Source: an uncultured Gammaproteobacteria bacterium
Lineage (GTDB): Bacteria > Patescibacteriota > Patescibacteriia > UBA2591 > UBA6264
Length of the DNA: 44,579 nt
Direction of reading: 5' to 3'
NCBI GenBank assembly: GCA_964531505.1
Contig: CAZHDT010000001.1
Coordinates: forward strand, 1-44,579
Both the position numbers and the translations under genes were made by a program. How positions within the stretch are numbered: the first letter of the stretch is position 1; each line of letters opens with the position of its first letter. This document shows positions 572-5,594 of this stretch, piece by piece. The notes under the pieces were generated by a model that was not told the origin of the DNA, did no database searches, and saw nothing but the letters and a program-made list of their open reading frames with translations.

Positions 572-1216
572 ATGGAAATATTAACCCCAAAACAAGAAAT
601 AATACTACAAGCCATTAAAAAGTTTTTTTCTGAAAATAGAAAAATGCCCACAATAAGAGAATTAAAAGAAGAAAGCGCTAAATTAGGATTGAGATTTAAG
701 AGCTTGCGAAGCGTGTTTTTATATCTTAACGTGTTAGAAAAAAAAGGATTTATAAAAAGGGTTTCTCGAGATAGGGGAATTGAATTAAAAAATCATGCTG
801 TAAATAATTTTATTAATGTACCTGTTTTAGGCATGGTCAATGCCGGTAGCCCAACTTTTTTTGCAGAACAAAATATAGAGGGTTATTTAAAGGTTTCTAG
901 GGCGTTATTAAAAAATAGAGAGGTTTTTGCTGTTAGGGTTTTTGGCGATTCTATGAATTTAGCCAAAATAAATGGGAAAAAAATTAAAGAAGATGATTTA
1001 ATTCTTGTTGATTATCAAGTTAAAAATTTTAACAATGGTGATAAAGTTCTGACCATTATTGATGGATTGGCCACAGTAAAGATATTTAAAAAAATAAACA
1101 AAAAAATGATTGGATTGTTTCCTGAATCGACAAACAAAAAGCATCAGCCAATTTATCTAACACCATCTGACGATTTTATCATCAATGGCAAAGTAATAGA
1201 TGTTTTGGGAGCTTAA
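572..1216 (+). CDS. lexA: LexA-type SOS repressor (winged-HTH plus S24 autopeptidase)
   Basis: N-terminal LTPKQ..IL..I / PTIRE..../ LE.KGFIKR. Ala-Gly cleavage site in VNAGSP. Ser nucleophile in GDSM. Lys in ATVKIF. Confidence 0.85.
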   Translation: MEILTPKQEIILQAIKKFFSENRKMPTIRELKEESAKLGLRFKSLRSVFLYLNVLEKKGFIKRVSRDRGIELKNHAVNNFINVPVLGMVNAGSPTFFAEQNIEGYLKVSRALLKNREVFAVRVFGDSMNLAKINGKKIKEDDLILVDYQVKNFNNGDKVLTIIDGLATVKIFKKINKKMIGLFPESTNKKHQPIYLTPSDDFIINGKVIDVLGA

Positions 1217-1297: not shown

Positions 1298-2104
1298 ATG
1301 ATTAAGGCATATTTTAAAAGAAATAATTTTACTTTATACCACAATGATTGCTTAAAAATTTTAGAGGCGATTCCTGAAAATTCAGTTGATATGATTTTTG
1401 CCGATCCCCCTTATTTTCTTTCTAATGGAGGCTTTACTTGTAAAAATGGCAGAATGGTCAGTGTTGATAAGGGAAAATGGGATGTAACGAATGGCTTAAA
1501 AAAAGATTTTGAATTTCATTTAGAATGGATAATGGCCTGCCATAGAGTTTTAAAACCAGGCGGTACGATTTGGATTTCTGGGACATATCACTCAATTTAT
1601 CAGTGCGGTTTTGCCCTGCAGGTGAATAAGTTTCATATTTTGAATGATATTGCCTGGTTTAAACCCAATGCTTCGCCAAATTTAAGCTGCCGTTTTTTTA
1701 CAGCTAGTCATGAGACTTTGATTTGGGCAAGGAAAGACAAAAAAGAAAAACACATTTTTAATTATGATTTAATGAAAAATGGCATGTGGCCGGAAGATGC
1801 TCTAAAAAAGCCGGGACTTCAAATGCGCTCTGTTTGGTCAATAGGCACCCCAAAGCCAATTGAAAAGAAATTTGGCAAACACCCAACACAAAAACCAGAG
1901 GATTTATTAAAACGTATCGTGCTTGCAAGTACCAATAAAGGCGACTTGATAATTGATCCATTTACTGGAAGCTCAACAACGGGAATTATTGCTCATCTTC
2001 TAGGGCGAAAATTTATAGGGATTGATATGGATAAAAAATATCTTGTTTTATCAAAAAAACGATTTGAAGAATTAAATAAAAATTTAAAAAGTAAATATTC
2101 TTAA
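1298..2104 (+). CDS. Type II DNA methyltransferase, beta-class (N6-adenine or N4-cytosine)
   Basis: Catalytic motif IV DPPY near the N-terminus (FADPPYF). SAM motif I DPFTGSSTTG near the C-terminus. This IV-before-I order defines the beta class. Confidence 0.9.
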   Translation: MIKAYFKRNNFTLYHNDCLKILEAIPENSVDMIFADPPYFLSNGGFTCKNGRMVSVDKGKWDVTNGLKKDFEFHLEWIMACHRVLKPGGTIWISGTYHSIYQCGFALQVNKFHILNDIAWFKPNASPNLSCRFFTASHETLIWARKDKKEKHIFNYDLMKNGMWPEDALKKPGLQMRSVWSIGTPKPIEKKFGKHPTQKPEDLLKRIVLASTNKGDLIIDPFTGSSTTGIIAHLLGRKFIGIDMDKKYLVLSKKRFEELNKNLKSKYS

Positions 2105-2122
2105 AAATAATAAATTAATTTT

Positions 2123-2647
2123 ATGAAAAAAGGTGGAGTAGGTGGGACAAATACAAAAACAGGACTTTATTTTGAAGGCAAAGTCGATTTTCTAGATTTT
2201 ATAAAATTACAGAAAAATTATACCGTTAAAGGAAATACAATTTTTTATAATGAGAAAAAAGTGGGGTTGTCTTTTAAAAAACATGGGTTATATAGATATT
2301 TGGAAAAAGAGGGTACGGATTATAAAGAATTTATTTCTAAAAAAATTTTGCCCGATGATGTGATATTTGTTATCACTAGTAATACTTTCTTTATTATCGA
2401 AATAAAGTTCCAAGAAGTTGCGGGTTCTACTGATGAAAAATTGCAAACTTGCGATTTTAAGATTAAGCAATACAGAAAACTATTGTCGCGCTTGAATGTA
2501 GAAGTACAATATATTTATATTTTAAATGATTGGTTTAAAGATCCGGGATATAAAGATGTCCTCGATTATATTATCTCAATAAATGGCTGTTCATATTATT
2601 TTAATTATCTACCGTTGCAGAAAATAGGATTACCTATGCCTAAATGA
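2123..2647 (+). CDS. Putative cognate type II restriction endonuclease (PD-(D/E)XK)
   Basis: Starts 19 nt after the methyltransferase stop. Literal PD...EIK motif (LPDDVIFVITSNTFFIIEIKFQ). Small size (174 aa) and no other family signature I recognise. Confidence 0.55.
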   Translation: MKKGGVGGTNTKTGLYFEGKVDFLDFIKLQKNYTVKGNTIFYNEKKVGLSFKKHGLYRYLEKEGTDYKEFISKKILPDDVIFVITSNTFFIIEIKFQEVAGSTDEKLQTCDFKIKQYRKLLSRLNVEVQYIYILNDWFKDPGYKDVLDYIISINGCSYYFNYLPLQKIGLPMPK

Positions 2648-2925: not shown

Positions 2926-3087
2926 ATGCCTAATGAGATAACGCCATCTGCTTCCAATAAAAATTTTGAGAGTATTAAAAAAGTTGATAAAAATGAAATT
3001 GAATATTGGAAAGCTCATGAATTGTGGATAACCATTTTCACCACCAATTTGATATTCAAATATTATTGTGATAATATGATTGTATGA
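2926..3087 (+). pseudogene. 5' fragment of a dinD-like gene (first ~35 codons, then out-of-family tail)
   Basis: MPNEITPSASNKNFESIKKVDKNEIEYWKAHELW resembles the E. coli DinD N-terminus (..PFEEIKLINANGAEQWSARQLG..). The internal ATG at 2926 is preferred to the TTG at 2887. Its TGA stop overlaps the next ATG (ATGA at 3084-3087). Confidence 0.45.
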
Positions 3088-3611
3088 TATATTATTCTGC
3101 CAGGAAAATTTTTAAAAAATTAGGGTATAGCCGTTGGCAAAAATTTGAGAGATTAATTCAAAGATCTTTGAATTTGATAAAAAATAGTTTAAAGGAAGGT
3201 TGTATCAAAAAAACAAAAATAGAAGTTTTTATCGGCAGCGGGGCTAAAAGAAAAATCATAGATTATTTATTAGACAAAAAAGCATTTAATCTTGTATGTG
3301 AAATGGCTCAGAGTTATAAATTGAATAAATCTCATTTATTACGGAACGAAACACTTATTTTGTCTCAACTAAAAAAATATTGTGATTTAAAAAAAATAAA
3401 ATTTGAATTTCAGTATCAATTAGGAAAATATTTTTTTGATTGTAAAATTAGAAATATTTTAATTGAATTTGATGAACCGCACCATGAAGAAAAGAAAGTT
3501 TTGATCAATGATAAAAAAAAGAATAAAATAGCGAAAGAAAGTCATTATAAACTCTTAAGATTCACATTAAAAGACGATATCATTGATATTATTTATAAAG
3601 TGTTTAGTTGA
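3084..3611 (+). CDS. DinD N-terminal domain fused to a DUF559/Vsr-like endonuclease module
   Basis: Residues 1-95 (YSARKIFKKLGYS...IGSGAKRKIIDYLL...LLRNE) parallel E. coli DinD residues ~24-150. The C-terminal part FEFQYQLGKYFFDC...ILIEFDEPHH...D..K......YKLLRF fits the DUF559 pattern F..Q...G.Y..D....E.D...H...D.R...L...G...LRF. Confidence 0.55.
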   Translation: MIYYSARKIFKKLGYSRWQKFERLIQRSLNLIKNSLKEGCIKKTKIEVFIGSGAKRKIIDYLLDKKAFNLVCEMAQSYKLNKSHLLRNETLILSQLKKYCDLKKIKFEFQYQLGKYFFDCKIRNILIEFDEPHHEEKKVLINDKKKNKIAKESHYKLLRFTLKDDIIDIIYKVFS

Positions 3612-3633
3612 TTTTAAAAAATAAAATAAAAAA

Positions 3634-4074
3634 ATGAAAAAAATTGCTATTTCAGACGAAAAGTTTTTTTCTGTGGCCAAACAAGCCGGTGTTACTAAAT
3701 TCGGGTTATTTAATGACGCTGGATATAGAGGTCTTTATGGCATGCCCCTATCAGGTGTTGAACGGAAGAAAGGAATAAAAAAGAGAGAATTATTAGATAG
3801 GGCTGGTTCTACTGAATTGGCGGCTAATTTATTTCGCATTACCCAAACCGACGAAAAGTTGAGAAAGGATAAAATAAAAGGGGATTATTCAGCCTCTCAA
3901 ACTCATTTTATGGTTGGAGGAAAGGTAAGACAAACTATTAAAGAAATTGGCGGGACAACTCCAGAACATCTACCTACAGAAAAACACATCAAAGAAGTAA
4001 AAAAAGAAATAAAAAAATTGGAGAATATAAAAAATAAAAAGATTGAAGTTAATAATAAAATTAAGTCTTTGTAG
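3634..4074 (+). CDS. dinD: DinD (DNA-damage-inducible protein D) C-terminal half as a separate ORF
   Basis: AKQAGV...F..F.NDAGYRGLYG, GSTELAANLFRITQTDEKL and HFMVGGKVRQTIKEIGGTTPEHLP closely parallel E. coli DinD (GYQGLYGG, GSTELAANLFRATQTEEKL, HFDVGRKVRQTIQELGGTMPEELP). Confidence 0.7.
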   Translation: MKKIAISDEKFFSVAKQAGVTKFGLFNDAGYRGLYGMPLSGVERKKGIKKRELLDRAGSTELAANLFRITQTDEKLRKDKIKGDYSASQTHFMVGGKVRQTIKEIGGTTPEHLPTEKHIKEVKKEIKKLENIKNKKIEVNNKIKSL

Positions 4075-4170
4075 TTAAATCAGGTATGTAAATATACTCA
4101 TTTGATTGCTGAATAACAGTTCTAACATCCCGCCAGAGGCGGACAGGCCGTTCACGATCTGGAGCCAATG

Positions 4171-4233
4171 TAATGGAAATGCATAGGTTTGACATAATTT
4201 TACAGCTGATATATAATGGAAATGCATAGGTTT
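4171..4233 (+). promoter_or_regulatory. Consensus promoter flanked and overlapped by two exact 20-bp direct repeats (candidate operators)
   Basis: TAATGGAAATGCATAGGTTT at 4171-4190 and 4214-4233. TTGACA 4189-4194, 17-bp spacer, TATAAT 4212-4217. The downstream ATG is at 4246. Confidence 0.65.
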
Positions 4234-4245
4234 AAATAAATATAT

Positions 4246-4977
4246 ATGAACTCAGAGTTAATAACAATTGGGCAAGTGTCTAAAATGATTGGGGTTTCTA
4301 TTGATACCTTACGTCGTTGGGACAAAGAGGGAAAGTTATCACCGATTCGCAGAAAAAAGGAAACAGGATATAGATATTATAAAAAAAAAGATATTGAAAG
4401 TTATAATGTGAAAAATCTGTTTAGGTTAGCAAGGTTTTGGATTGAGGATGACTCTGGCTTCGAGCCTCTCCACGATTTTTATTGTCCTGACAGTTCTGTG
4501 TTTAATGCGTGGATAAAAAGGATGGAAAATGAATTAGGAAGAGTAAAGGGATTAAATTTAATATTCCCTTTAATTTCAGCCATTGCTGCTGAAATTGGCG
4601 ATAATTCTTTCAATCATAATTTAGGCAACTGGCCGGATATTCCTGGCATAATTTTTGCATATAATTTAAATAAAAGAATAGTAGTTTTAGCGGATAGAGG
4701 GCGAGGTATATTAACAACCTTGAGAAACGTTGAACCGAATTTGGCAAATCACCAAGATGCTTTATATGTTGCTTTTACAAAACTTATTTCAGGGCGCCCG
4801 GGAGAATCAAGAGGAAATGGATTGAAATTTGTAAAGGATGTTGTGATGAAGAATGAAATAGGCTTATTTTTTCAAACGGGTGATGCATATTTTGAAATTA
4901 AAAAAAAGAATCCTAATTTCAAAATAAAAAAATCAAAGATTAATTTTCATGGATGTTTAGCTTTAATTAAATTTTAA
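4246..4977 (+). CDS. MerR-type HTH fused to a small GHKL (RsbW/SpoIIAB-like) ATPase/kinase domain
   Basis: N-terminus ITIGQVSKMIGVSIDTLRRWDKEGKL..R....GYRYY (MerR HTH). N-box-like AAEIGDNSFNH, G1-like LADRGRGI, G2-like SRGNGLKFV. Confidence 0.7.
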   Translation: MNSELITIGQVSKMIGVSIDTLRRWDKEGKLSPIRRKKETGYRYYKKKDIESYNVKNLFRLARFWIEDDSGFEPLHDFYCPDSSVFNAWIKRMENELGRVKGLNLIFPLISAIAAEIGDNSFNHNLGNWPDIPGIIFAYNLNKRIVVLADRGRGILTTLRNVEPNLANHQDALYVAFTKLISGRPGESRGNGLKFVKDVVMKNEIGLFFQTGDAYFEIKKKNPNFKIKKSKINFHGCLALIKF

Positions 4978-4984
4978 TAAACGT

Positions 4985-5425
4985 ATGATTATAGAGTTAA
5001 AAAAATTTGGAACAACCTTAGTTAGTAGGCAATTTGGAAAAGAATCTTTTGCTGCTTTTTTGCCGTCTTTAAAAAGAGTTCAAGACGACGAGATGGTTGA
5101 AGTTGATTTTTTAGGGGTTGTAACTTTTACGCCTTCTTGGGGTGATGAGTTTTTAGGTCCCTTGCTTAATAAATTTAAAGATAAGTTAGTATTAAAAAAT
5201 ACTGAAAATTTATCAGTTCAGGCGACATTATACTTATTGGAAAAAATTTATAAAAATAAATTTAAAGTAAAAAAAGAGATACGGAAAGCTGGTGTTTTAT
5301 GTGAGGGTAAAAATGCGACGTTTATAAACTGTGAAGGCGTTGGTCCTGATGCGGGAATGATAGACAAAGGGGAAAATACAACTTCGATAGATTCAAAATG
5401 GAGGGCTACTAGAAGAAATAAATAA
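4985..5425 (+). CDS. STAS-like (DUF4325-type) protein with a basic C-terminal tail
   Basis: Starts 7 nt after the GHKL gene. N-terminal ~95 aa (LVSRQFGKESFAAF...VEVDFLGVVTFTPSWGDEFLGPL) match my recollection of the DUF4325 STAS-like family, which typically partners with such ATPases. Confidence 0.55.
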   Translation: MIIELKKFGTTLVSRQFGKESFAAFLPSLKRVQDDEMVEVDFLGVVTFTPSWGDEFLGPLLNKFKDKLVLKNTENLSVQATLYLLEKIYKNKFKVKKEIRKAGVLCEGKNATFINCEGVGPDAGMIDKGENTTSIDSKWRATRRNK

Positions 5426-5594
5426 ATTATTAGATTAAATATCTCGGGTGAATGAAGATTATTTGGATATCCAGGTTCCTGCCTCGTCCCGTCGCCTGAG
5501 CGATTTTTTTTAATACCTCAGAATTTTATGTATTATACATATATATTATGGGGCTTAAAATCTAAAAATTAATATTTGCGTTATCAAAAAAAAT

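Follow-up and report, generated by a model that had tools for sequence, protein, structure and literature searches.

The two genes at positions 4171-5425 of the 44.6-kb stretch of DNA analysed here (the window) form a real self-repressing switch, composed of a kinase with a DNA-binding head and a small STAS partner, and this switch is common in Patescibacteria (CPR). It is a variant of the CapK/CapS kinase-STAS switch published in 2026 (Chambers et al., EMBO J 2026, PMC13373217), with the DNA-binding domain on the kinase in place of the STAS protein. For the region as a whole, we give the explanation as a self-contained, negatively autoregulated transcriptional switch a probability of about 0.6. 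Autorepression of the pair by the ORF1 protein is well supported by the in silico data, and we infer phosphorylation of Ser51 of the ORF2 protein, a signal and an output for the switch. Both open reading frames were found where the first-pass annotation of this DNA had placed them, on the same strand (Table 1).

Table 1 Features of the two-gene operon and its promoter region
Feature	Position	Strand	Basis or remark
Operator copy A	4168..4190	+	Extended repeat; 11-nt core TGCATAGGTTT at 4180-4190
Sigma-70-type promoter	4189..4217	+	TTGACA 4189-4194, 17 nt, TATAAT 4212-4217; 12/12 consensus
Operator copy B	4211..4233	+	Extended repeat; conserved core 4223-4233
ORF1	4246-4977	+	243 aa
ORF1 aa 1-55, MerR/BldC-like winged HTH without coiled-coil helix	4246..4410	+	PF00376, HTH_17, AF2
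ORF1 aa 56-106, family-specific helical linker	4411..4563	+	Alignment A1, AF2 helices 58-67 and 83-98
ORF1 aa 107-243 and stop, divergent GHKL (Bergerat-fold) kinase/ATPase domain	4564..4977	+	Motifs, Foldseek, hhalign
ORF2	4985-5425	+	146 aa, starts 7 nt after ORF1
ORF2 aa 1-97, DUF4325/STAS domain	4985..5275	+	PF14213, alignment A2, AF2, Foldseek
ORF2 aa 98-146 and stop, predicted-disordered C-terminal tail	5276..5425	+	Alignment A2, pLDDT <50
Terminator-like hairpin and T-run closing the two-gene operon	5491..5513	+	Consensus scan; putative

The ORF1 protein starts with a MerR-type HTH, as had been read from the sequence before. The check with the MerR_1 profile was positive (PF00376, E 6.8e-14, residues 7-45), and the Pfam search also matched PF13411 (E 3.7e-12). 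The BldC structures 6AMA and 6AMK were matched by the HTH profile, and the match to the NCBIfam BldC model fell below the cut-off of that model. No long helix follows the wing of the HTH in the AF2 model. The recognition helix SIDTLRRW begins with Asp20 (codon 4303-4305). The linker between the HTH and the GHKL domain comprises 51 residues in two helices and is too short for a STAS domain. Its aromatic residues W65, F78, Y79 and F86 are invariant in alignment A1 (motif W..DD...DFYC.DSSVF.A), and the aromatic segment is also retained in HTH-less relatives.

All three motifs that had suggested a GHKL ATPase (EIGDNSFNH, DRGRGI and RGNGLKF) were found in ORF1. The N-box (E116-x3-N120-x3-H124), the G1 motif (D150-x-G152-x-G154) and the G2 motif (R189-G-x-G192-L) are invariant in the 35 homologues of alignment A1 as well as in the HTH-less relatives; G2 spans R189-L193, and the ATP-lid loop lies at about 183-190. 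The leading Foldseek matches listed for the AF2 model (pLDDT 78) were all GHKL proteins, namely GyrB, Hsp90, Topo II and CheA P4, with probabilities of 0.9-1.0 and modest E values of 1e-4 to 1e-3. Comparison of the ORF1 family with CapK by hhalign gave a probability of 76% over 107 columns (E 2.2e-5). PDB sequence searches with ORF1 matched the HTH alone and did not detect the GHKL domain, nor did any Pfam, NCBIfam or PADLOC profile; the HATPase_c_2 search was blank, with 0 of the 35 family members matching a HATPase model. The GHKL assignment is therefore drawn from the motifs, the predicted fold and the hhalign match to CapK, and not from curated profiles.

For ORF2 the expected STAS-like DUF4325 domain was confirmed by a profile match above the Pfam cut-off (PF14213, residues 33-75, 27.0 bits compared to 23). 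Nearly all ORF2 homologues carry a precomputed PF14213 assignment, and Foldseek identified a STAS fold, with RsbS, stressosome and RsbV-like STAS proteins as top matches (AF2 pLDDT >90 for residues 1-97). VapS (PDB 9Z7O) is the sole solved structure matched by the ORF2 sequence, and this match is weak (E 0.02-0.04). The predicted phospho-acceptor, Ser51 (codon 5135-5137), is invariant in alignment A2 and is part of the sequence TFTPSWGDEF, where the second long helix begins. The residue aligns with S54 of CapS and S48 of VapS. Apart from the window protein, a single relative with 86% identity has the C-terminal tail; the remaining homologues comprise 94-105 residues. That this tail might be a functional domain, in the manner of the CapS wHTH or the C-terminus of VapS, was rejected because it is lineage-confined and predicted to be disordered; judged by the alignment, it lies outside the conserved module.

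The promoter upstream of ORF1 matches the sigma-70 consensus perfectly, as claimed before, and the promoters of homologous loci (34 loci in all) likewise score 11-12 of 12 positions. From the position of the -10 hexamer, transcription is predicted to start near 4224. An exact 20-mer occurs only at 4171-4190 and 4214-4233, and its two copies lie 43 bp, i.e. four helical turns, apart. The initial view that such a repeat is unlikely to arise by chance proved correct, with 0.02 expected and none of 100 shuffles reaching two. With one mismatch the repeat extends to 23 nt. The repeats had been described as covering the -35 and -10 regions; they do overlap them partially, but rather bracket the promoter than cover its hexamers. 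Copy A shares 2 nt with the -35 hexamer, the last two T of its core being the first two bases of this hexamer, and copy B takes in the last 4 nt of the -10 hexamer before it crosses the predicted start site and covers the early leader. An RNA element was rejected as an explanation of the repeats: Rfam and tRNA scans of the region were blank, and copy A lies upstream of the -35 and is therefore untranscribed. Further operator copies within the window were limited to one-mismatch matches at chance level, and no regulated output beyond the pair itself was seen there.

An 11-nt operator, TGYATAGRTTT, is contained in the repeat and is conserved across the family. In 79 homologous loci, 105 forward and 2 reverse sites were counted in 15.7 kb upstream of kinase genes, compared to 7 sites in 843 kb elsewhere. 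The enrichment of the operator upstream of homologues exceeds 1000-fold. Spacings of 21, 30, 43 and 53 bp dominate in these loci, 21 bp being the most frequent, and represent helical multiples. Relative to the start of the -35 hexamer, an operator at -9 (site -44 to -34) was found in 17 of 34 loci and one at +34/35 in 21 of 34; the latter is the most conserved site and lies on the transcription start. A position at +55/56 also recurs, and other sites are located in the spacer or the leader. The flanks outside the 11-nt core carry little information family-wide, and the additional 9-12 nt of identity within the 20-23-mer of the window were not accepted as part of the operator since they are not conserved in the family. 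A blind search of metagenomes yielded 120 operator dimers, 77 of which are directly upstream of a kinase homologue, while 40 have no kinase gene after them and for the other 3 the contig ends first. Several of the 40 were left uncounted as targets, because they are tandem repeats or lie inside coding sequence or high-GC DNA.

The identity of HTH residue 20 (Q or M vs. D) tracks base 3 of the operator (T vs. C) in 111 of 114 loci, and on a tree from which the HTH was left out the two switched together at least five times independently. The window represents a D20/TGC lineage nested in a Q20/TGT clade. According to this co-variation, it is the kinase's own HTH that reads the operator. Asp20 is predicted to read C3 (TGCATAGGTTT), and Gln or Met to read T3 (TGTATAGGTTT for Gln); the co-variation also points to binding of the HTH to the direct repeats. 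HTH-less variant loci have no operator, and a variant with a different wHTH has a palindrome in its place. Autoregulation via the repeats, as proposed from the window alone, is thus supported by the operator enrichment, the fixed positions relative to the promoter and the co-evolution with HTH residue 20.

The kinase-STAS family was found in CPR/Patescibacteria metagenome assemblies. It is present across Parcubacteria, Microgenomates, Gracilibacteria and Peregrinibacteria, and the two genes form an invariant pair in at least 453 CPR species genomes. Complete CPR genomes, OY970195.1 for example, carry the module as well. The first-pass annotation had made its reading dependent on a conserved pairing in other genomes, and indeed the partner gene lies directly downstream of the kinase gene in essentially every locus, mostly with a gap of 1-25 nt (7 nt in the window) and with few short overlaps. 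An association with defence islands or with the R-M and SOS genes nearby, which had also been suggested, was not borne out by the neighbourhood survey. The 472 neighbouring ORFs fall into 407 clusters and are hence not conserved, and among the 134 immediate neighbours neither an enrichment of any Pfam or PADLOC family nor a defence-island bias was detected. On these results, such an association was dismissed as a family-wide trait. A phage origin of the module was likewise rejected, as no homologue was found among the IMG/VR viral contigs.

This distribution also bears on the possibility of an addiction module similar to toxin-antitoxin (TA) or abortive-infection systems, in which the kinase or the STAS protein would inhibit growth, the partner would neutralise it and the HTH would autorepress in TA style. 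The compact organisation as two closely spaced genes under strong autorepression would fit such a module, as would the variable genomic context without conserved neighbours and the presence of two copies in one MAG (L016 and L020). Moreover, some of the operator-bearing promoters elsewhere precede MazE-like, NYN or nuclease genes, and the related VapKSC is a TA system with the PIN toxin VapC (PMC13373217). In VapK/VapS, too, the partner of a GHKL kinase is a small STAS protein without a DNA-binding domain. VapK differs from the window kinase in possessing a STAS domain and no HTH. VapKSC needs its PIN toxin, but neither in the window nor, as a rule, at other loci does a PIN/VapC gene come after the pair; the single exception is locus L123, where an NYN (PIN-like) gene under operator control comes next. 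No toxin domain is recognisable in the pair, sequence identity remains as high as 50-70% across deep CPR lineages, the contexts are mostly housekeeping, and the module is absent from viral contigs. We therefore regard an addiction module as unlikely.

The description of the kinase as RsbW-like holds at the level of motifs. The E-x3-N-x3-H, DxGxG and RGxGL motifs of ORF1 match the N-box, G1 and G2 of SpoIIAB and RsbW, and the pair shares with SpoIIAB/SpoIIAA and RsbW/RsbV a single-domain STAS antagonist with a (here predicted) phospho-Ser as well as adjacent, co-transcribed genes. This logic would also fit classical partner switching, with the GHKL protein sequestering an unlinked sigma factor, the STAS protein as antagonist and the HTH for autoregulation only. 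Such a circuit is quite unlikely, however: a gene for a sigma factor or a PP2C phosphatase was neither found in the window, i.e. within about 40 kb, nor recurrent near the pair in 80 loci, the HATPase_c_2 profile was not matched, and the closest detectable GHKL relative is CapK, which acts on a repressor and not on a sigma factor. Since the window kinase is fused to a DNA-binding domain, its output would be direct DNA binding instead of sigma sequestration.

CapK is activated by ssDNA through the conserved aromatic residue W68 and phosphorylates the CapS Ser equivalent to S51, thereby releasing repression (PMC13373217). In both systems the gene for an HTH-bearing GHKL kinase immediately precedes the gene for a STAS protein in which helix 2 of the STAS domain has a conserved Ser at its start (S51 in the window, S54 in CapS). 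The GHKL cores are homologous, sharing E.IGN..DH, D.G.GI..TLK and RG.GLK, and the own promoter is autoregulated in both. Furthermore, an R-M system is located upstream of the window pair, as in 88 of 443 capKS loci. The two systems differ in their architecture. CapK comprises 368 residues arranged as wHTH-STAS-GHKL with the N-box Asn at N218, whereas the window kinase has 243 residues, a MerR-type HTH, no internal STAS domain and the N-box Asn at N120. CapS itself is the repressor and acts on palindromes via its C-terminal wHTH, whereas here the kinase HTH would act on direct repeats and the family partner is a bare STAS protein of about 96 residues without a wHTH. An immune operon follows capKS in 348 of 443 cases, but the window family has no conserved downstream gene. 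Pfam does not recognise CapS as DUF4325, and the window family occurs in CPR/Patescibacteria, a group absent from the CapK paper.

Alignment A2 of the ORF2 family and CapS gave no significant hhalign match (probability 1.7%), so that only fold, register and context argue for homology of the STAS proteins. Deletion of the CapK HTH had no phenotype (PMC13373217), and therefore the CapK analogy does not cover the DNA-binding role. The GHKL (anti-sigma-kinase-like) and STAS pair wired to a DNA-binding domain, which formed the core of the first-pass annotation, is supported by the motifs, the predicted fold and the hhalign match to CapK. Its description as an undescribed type has to be narrowed, as kinase-STAS switches are known from CapK/CapS and VapK/VapS (PMC13373217). 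The architecture itself, a MerR HTH directly on the kinase together with a bare STAS protein and no effector operon, is described neither in PMC13373217 nor elsewhere in the searchable literature.

A further reading regards the GHKL domain as a regulatory ATPase or nucleotide sensor lacking protein-kinase activity and the STAS protein as a non-phosphorylated, ligand-binding or clamp-like co-regulator. The best Foldseek matches of ORF1 are indeed ATPases (GyrB, Hsp90, Topo II) and not SpoIIAB, and a function of DUF4325 has never been tested in the searchable literature. This reading is distinctly improbable, as the invariant Ser51 lies exactly at the STAS phospho-site position shared with CapS and VapS, and ORF1 has the N-box His and the general spacing of motifs seen in anti-sigma kinases and CapK.

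On direct repeats, BldC molecules are arranged head-to-tail along one face of the DNA, and their number varies (Schumacher et al. 2018, PMC5859096). The winged HTH of BldC is of the MerR type and, as in ORF1, lacks the coiled-coil dimerisation helix, and the uniform orientation of the operators in the window family (105 vs. 2) suggests a similar mode of binding. BldC is a stand-alone protein of 68 residues recognising an AATT-type repeat, whereas here the HTH forms the N-terminal head of a kinase and TGYATAGRTTT is phased by 21 bp. Classical MerR proteins share the N-terminal wHTH with ORF1, but they have a long coiled-coil dimerisation helix and a palindrome in a 19-20-bp spacer, whereas the promoter in the window has a 17-bp spacer with direct repeats outside of it. 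An activating or dual role of the HTH-GHKL protein, with the -35-abutting copy recruiting RNA polymerase in a class-II-like manner, is very unlikely. Activators are what the MerR family is mainly known for, and half of the 34 loci have the -44 to -34 site. However, the promoters already match the consensus perfectly and have a spacer of 17 bp where MerR-type activation needs 19-20 bp, the most conserved site is on the transcription start with others in the spacer or leader, and the sites are direct repeats and not a palindrome centred in the spacer.

In the self-repressing switch favoured here, the 243-aa ORF1 protein would be both repressor and kinase. Its BldC-like winged HTH would bind head-to-tail to the TGYATAGRTTT repeats, phased by whole helical turns. 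One repeat abuts the -35 and the other lies on the transcription start of the consensus promoter, so that ORF1 binding would shut off the operon; for this part of the model the in silico support is strong. The C-terminal anti-sigma-type GHKL domain would bind the co-transcribed DUF4325/STAS protein and phosphorylate Ser51, which we infer from the invariant catalytic motifs and from CapK/CapS and SpoIIAB/SpoIIAA as precedents. The STAS partner, when bound or phosphorylated, may in turn alter the oligomeric or DNA-binding state of the kinase, and a signal could thereby de-repress the operon. In some genomes de-repression might extend to operator-bearing promoters of nuclease, RadC, antitoxin-like and orphan-STAS genes. 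As to the signal, ssDNA or another nucleic-acid or energy cue, perceived via the aromatic linker and the GHKL unit, is suggested by analogy with CapK and with low confidence; the sole basis of the ssDNA idea is a weak, non-significant register match (-1.2 bits) between the linker and CapK residues 48-80, which include W68.

Members of the CPR/Patescibacteria have tiny genomes with few regulators, and to our knowledge almost none of their signalling has been studied experimentally. The module is one of few conserved regulatory units across CPR lineages, and with the 11-nt operator, the specificity residue 20, the predicted phospho-site Ser51 and the catalytic residues a testable system is in hand. 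The logic of CapK/CapS, a kinase and a STAS protein controlling transcription, appears to exist in a second wiring with DNA binding on the kinase, which helps to explain the HTH of CapK, a domain with no role assigned to it so far, and illustrates the recombination of partner-switching parts. A more far-reaching view would see an anti-sigma-type kinase turned repressor, acting as a CPR-wide sensor-kinase-repressor with a STAS co-factor, that binds incoming phage promoters (transcriptional immunity) or that phages use to read the host state, and that controls a small nuclease/RadC/orphan-STAS regulon in some genomes; we consider this doubtful. The operator is carried by 26 viral contigs which encode no cognate HTH, compared to 1 for the matched control, which is a hint of regulatory cross-talk between hosts and phages in CPR.

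Comparison of homologous loci strongly suggests, with a probability of about 0.85, that the kinase-like protein ORF1 would bind direct repeats of the core TGYATAGRTTT through its HTH and thereby autoregulate, most likely repress, the operon it forms with its DUF4325/STAS partner ORF2. Both ORFs, the promoter and an exact 20-bp repeat are present in the sequence as the first-pass annotation described them. The 20-mer TAATGGAAATGCATAGGTTT starts at 4171 and 4214 only (0.02 expected by chance; two copies in 0 of 100 shuffles) and lengthens to 23 nt with one mismatch. It does lie at the promoter, but brackets it and does not cover it as had been claimed: copy A ends inside the −35, and copy B extends from within the −10 across the predicted start site. 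Just upstream of copy A the AT-rich spacer contains a GC-rich patch (4126-4165). This patch includes, at about 4129-4141, a perfect hairpin, CCGCC-aga-GGCGG, that lacks a T-run.

Features of the window (no prefix) and of homologous or operator-bearing loci (L numbers)
Feature	Position	Strand	Remarks
lexA	572-1216		LexA_DNA_bind + Peptidase_S24
N6/N4 DNA methyltransferase	1298-2104		between lexA and DinD-like genes
Putative PD-(D/E)XK partner	2123-2647		174-aa ORF; sub-threshold profile match
DinD-like N-terminal part (aa 3-77)	3084-3611		fused to DUF559/Vsr-like endonuclease domain
DinD-like C-terminal part	3634-4074		PRK11525 positions 148-283; PADLOC PDC-S13
Sigma-70 promoter	4189-4217	+	TTGACA-17-TATAAT; 12/12 consensus match
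ORF1	4246-4977	+	243 aa
ORF2	4985-5425	+	146 aa; gap to ORF1 7 nt
HTH-less variant	L210:4001-4873		194-aa linker-GHKL protein + DUF4325
Alternative-wHTH variant	L212:3445-4548		276-aa protein, different winged HTH, + DUF4325
Operator array	L119		before MazE/AbrB-like gene + RadC
Kinase; STAS; operator; NYN gene	L123:379-1095; 1122-1409; 1978; 2084-2629	−	
Orphan STAS/DUF4325 paralogues	L144:1665-2791; L190:812-1185		directly behind 3-copy operator arrays; no kinase gene upstream
Operator array	L117		before Vsr/NUMOD3 endonuclease
4-5 operator-like repeats	L114:30-130; L132		21-bp phasing; ~110 nt upstream of rpoB promoter
Operator dimer	L227:6778-6809		upstream of head-tail adaptor gene
Operator dimer	L219	−	abutting start codon of phrog_7999 gene (phage-only family)

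About 3000 homologues of the kinase are detectable, nearly all without annotation or called 'MerR family'. One genome per species was scanned by pattern, which gave 453 species with a relative; these carry labels of many CPR/Patescibacteria groups including Parcubacteria and Microgenomates lineages, Gracilibacteria and Peregrinibacteria. In one MAG (CAYXST01; L016, L020) the whole module is present twice, in copies that have diverged and are about 60% identical to the window protein. The gene pairing is conserved: wherever the contig reaches far enough, at the 80 genome loci and in the window's own contigs, the kinase gene is immediately followed by a co-oriented partner gene, mostly with a gap of 1-25 nt and in a few cases with a short overlap. 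With the GHKL domain alone as profile, an exhaustive search of 1.84 billion representatives recovered no more than 348 clusters (50% identity), among them a class of 188-208 aa without HTH that keeps the aromatic linker; another family member, P0254, has a different winged HTH. Because a DUF4325 gene follows in both variants, linker-GHKL plus DUF4325 is, judged from these sequences, the invariant unit and the DNA-binding head is exchangeable. Such a compact pair might be taken for a TA-like module; we consider this improbable.

A link to defence islands and the SOS response had been proposed from the window, where lexA, the methyltransferase with its putative partner and the split DinD-like gene precede the kinase pair in this order and the remainder is housekeeping. 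The methyltransferase and PD-(D/E)XK ORF (1298-2647) form a putative type II R-M pair, and the split gene (3084-4074) may reflect insertion of an endonuclease into dinD. The lexA promoter (517-545) matches the consensus at 12/12 positions, the only one in the first 8 kb to do so besides that of the kinase operon; both transcription units are of like design, a perfect promoter and a repressor. Across loci the context is not conserved. The 472 flanking ORFs from 80 loci fell into 407 clusters, the largest with 5 members, no family was enriched among 134 immediate neighbours (Pfam ≤4 members, PADLOC ≤2), three long contigs with the module have unrelated neighbourhoods, and module homologues were not found in IMG/VR. 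The proposed link is therefore a local coincidence and not a trait of the family. A classical module sequestering a sigma factor would suit a kinase-STAS pair; genes for a sigma factor or a PP2C phosphatase were not found in the window, and we regard this reading as unlikely.

The MerR HTH of ORF1 was recovered by Pfam search (PF00376, E 6.8e-14, aa 7-45). Residues 1-55 make up a winged HTH that is not followed by a long coiled-coil, and residues 56-106 form two helices with the invariant aromatics W65, F78, Y79 and F86. The GHKL domain escaped Pfam, NCBIfam and PADLOC profiles, and HATPase models matched 0 of 35 homologues. Its assignment finds support in motifs, predicted fold and an hhalign comparison to CapK, a wHTH-STAS-GHKL kinase whose activator is ssDNA and whose target is Ser54 of CapS (PMC13373217). 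Invariant in the 35 homologues are E116-x3-N120-x3-H124, D150-x-G152-x-G154 and R189-G-x-G192-L, with the same spacing of N-box, G1 and G2 as in SpoIIAB/RsbW-type kinases. The AlphaFold2 model (pLDDT 78, pTM 0.75; lid disordered at 183-190) matched as leading PDB entries the GHKL ATPases GyrB, Hsp90, Topo II and CheA P4 (probability 0.9-1.0, E 1e-4 to 1e-3). Alignment to CapK, whose sequence was taken from the supplement of PMC13373217 with numbering verified, spans 107 columns from the N-box to past G2 (probability 76%, E 2.2e-5) with the common motifs E.IGN..DH, D.G.GI..TLK and RG.GLK. A non-kinase ATPase could be read from the fold matches; next to the kinase-type spacing and the likeness to CapK it appears rather unlikely.

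For ORF2 the predicted STAS-like DUF4325 domain was verified with Pfam (27.0 bits vs. a 23-bit cut-off, aa 33-75). Its core (aa 1-97) is modelled with pLDDT >90 and structurally best matches STAS proteins (RsbS, stressosome components, RsbV-like antagonists); VapS (PDB 9Z7O) is the only solved structure matched by sequence (E 0.02-0.04). Nearly all homologues have 94-105 aa. The C-terminal 50 residues, predicted to be disordered, are restricted to the window protein and a single relative with 86% identity and may be a read-through extension past the usual stop; the stretch encoding the 49-aa tail (5276-5422) is relatively GC-rich. Ser51, part of the invariant TFTPSWGDEF and located where the second long helix begins, lines up with the phospho-acceptor S54 of CapS. 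We favour, with some reserve, a mechanism in which the GHKL domain would phosphorylate Ser51 and the ORF1-ORF2 interaction would toggle DNA binding by ORF1.

Direct repeats of TGYATAGRTTT are found upstream of kinase homologues. At 79 loci, 15.7 kb of kinase upstream regions contained 105 forward and 2 reverse copies, compared to 7 copies in 843 kb elsewhere. Copies are spaced by 21 bp (26 cases), also by 30, 43 or 53 bp. Since flanks of the core carry little information, the window 20-mer is best read as 9 lineage-specific bases plus an 11-nt operator. As a blind prediction, metagenomes were scanned for two cores 21 bp apart, and 77 of 120 stretches were located directly upstream of a kinase homologue. 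Residue 20 of the HTH, the first of the recognition helix SI[Q/M/D]TLRRW, co-varies with operator base 3 (Gln/Met with T, Asp with C) in 111 of 114 distinct loci. A tree based on residues 56-243 alone shows that the two switched together at least 5 times independently. One of these joint switches is that of the window lineage: it carries D20/TGCATAG and branches within Q20/TGTATAG relatives that are about 70% identical. At the single locus of each variant, the operator motif was not found at the promoter of the HTH-less form (L210), and a palindrome, TTGACTttgtAGTCAA, lies over the −35 in place of the operator in the alternative-wHTH form (L212). The HTH profile also matches structures of BldC, a MerR-like wHTH protein that lacks a coiled coil and sits head-to-tail on direct repeats (PMC5859096). 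In 34 loci with an 11-12/12 promoter, sites lie relative to the −35 start at −9 (17 loci), at +34/35, the predicted transcription start site (21), and at +55/56 (8); the window has −9 and +34. A consensus promoter with an operator on the predicted start site points to a repressor layout, start position and direction of regulation being inferred, and an activator role of ORF1 is very unlikely.

The closest known system is CapK/CapS. It, too, is autoregulated and has the kinase gene ahead of the STAS gene; the GHKL cores are homologous, and Ser51 corresponds in position to the phospho-Ser of CapS. CapS is a STAS-wHTH protein; phosphorylation of Ser54 dissolves the repressor dimer and de-represses the downstream immune operon, and VapK/VapS/VapC apply this logic to a PIN toxin (PMC13373217). 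In contrast, the ORF1 family lacks a STAS domain, its partner lacks a wHTH, no effector operon follows the pair, and it is the kinase that takes over DNA binding, with a MerR/BldC-type head on direct repeats. MerR, DUF4325 or Patescibacteria are not mentioned in this connection in PMC13373217 or other searchable literature. The suggestion of an undescribed type thus holds for the architecture but not for the logic, and we rate the pair as a new version of a known, CapK/CapS-like kind. By analogy to CapK, ssDNA or DNA damage is a tentative candidate for the cue; this speculation also draws on the conserved aromatic linker, which matches CapK 48-80 in register only and non-significantly, and on the nuclease/repair flavour of candidate extra targets.

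In the window no operator copies were found beyond A and B. Outside it, clean arrays precede other genes at L119, L123, L144, L190, L117, L114 and L132. At L123 the kinase/STAS pair is followed by an IS200-like gene and then by a NYN (PIN-like) nuclease gene with its own operator-bearing promoter, a layout reminiscent of VapKSC. At L144 an AbiEii toxin gene and a putative AbiEi-like gene come before the STAS gene, and a gene for a Cas4-like PD-(D/E)XK nuclease comes after it. The operator dimer (two cores 21 bp apart) occurred as an exact match in 26 viral contigs of IMG/VR (L214-L239, e.g. L227, L219, L235, L231, L233) vs. 1 with a reversed-motif control, and several dimers lie between genes and close to promoters in AT-rich phages; neither the kinase nor a homologous HTH was found near them. 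These promoters are leads to candidate targets, in a small regulon or in phage cross-talk. In the high-GC phage contigs L216, L221, L228, L239 and L093 the dimer is contained in a conserved element, GGAAGGGACGAAATGTATAGATTTGGAnTnCAAATGTATAGATTTCG, which probably serves a different regulator.
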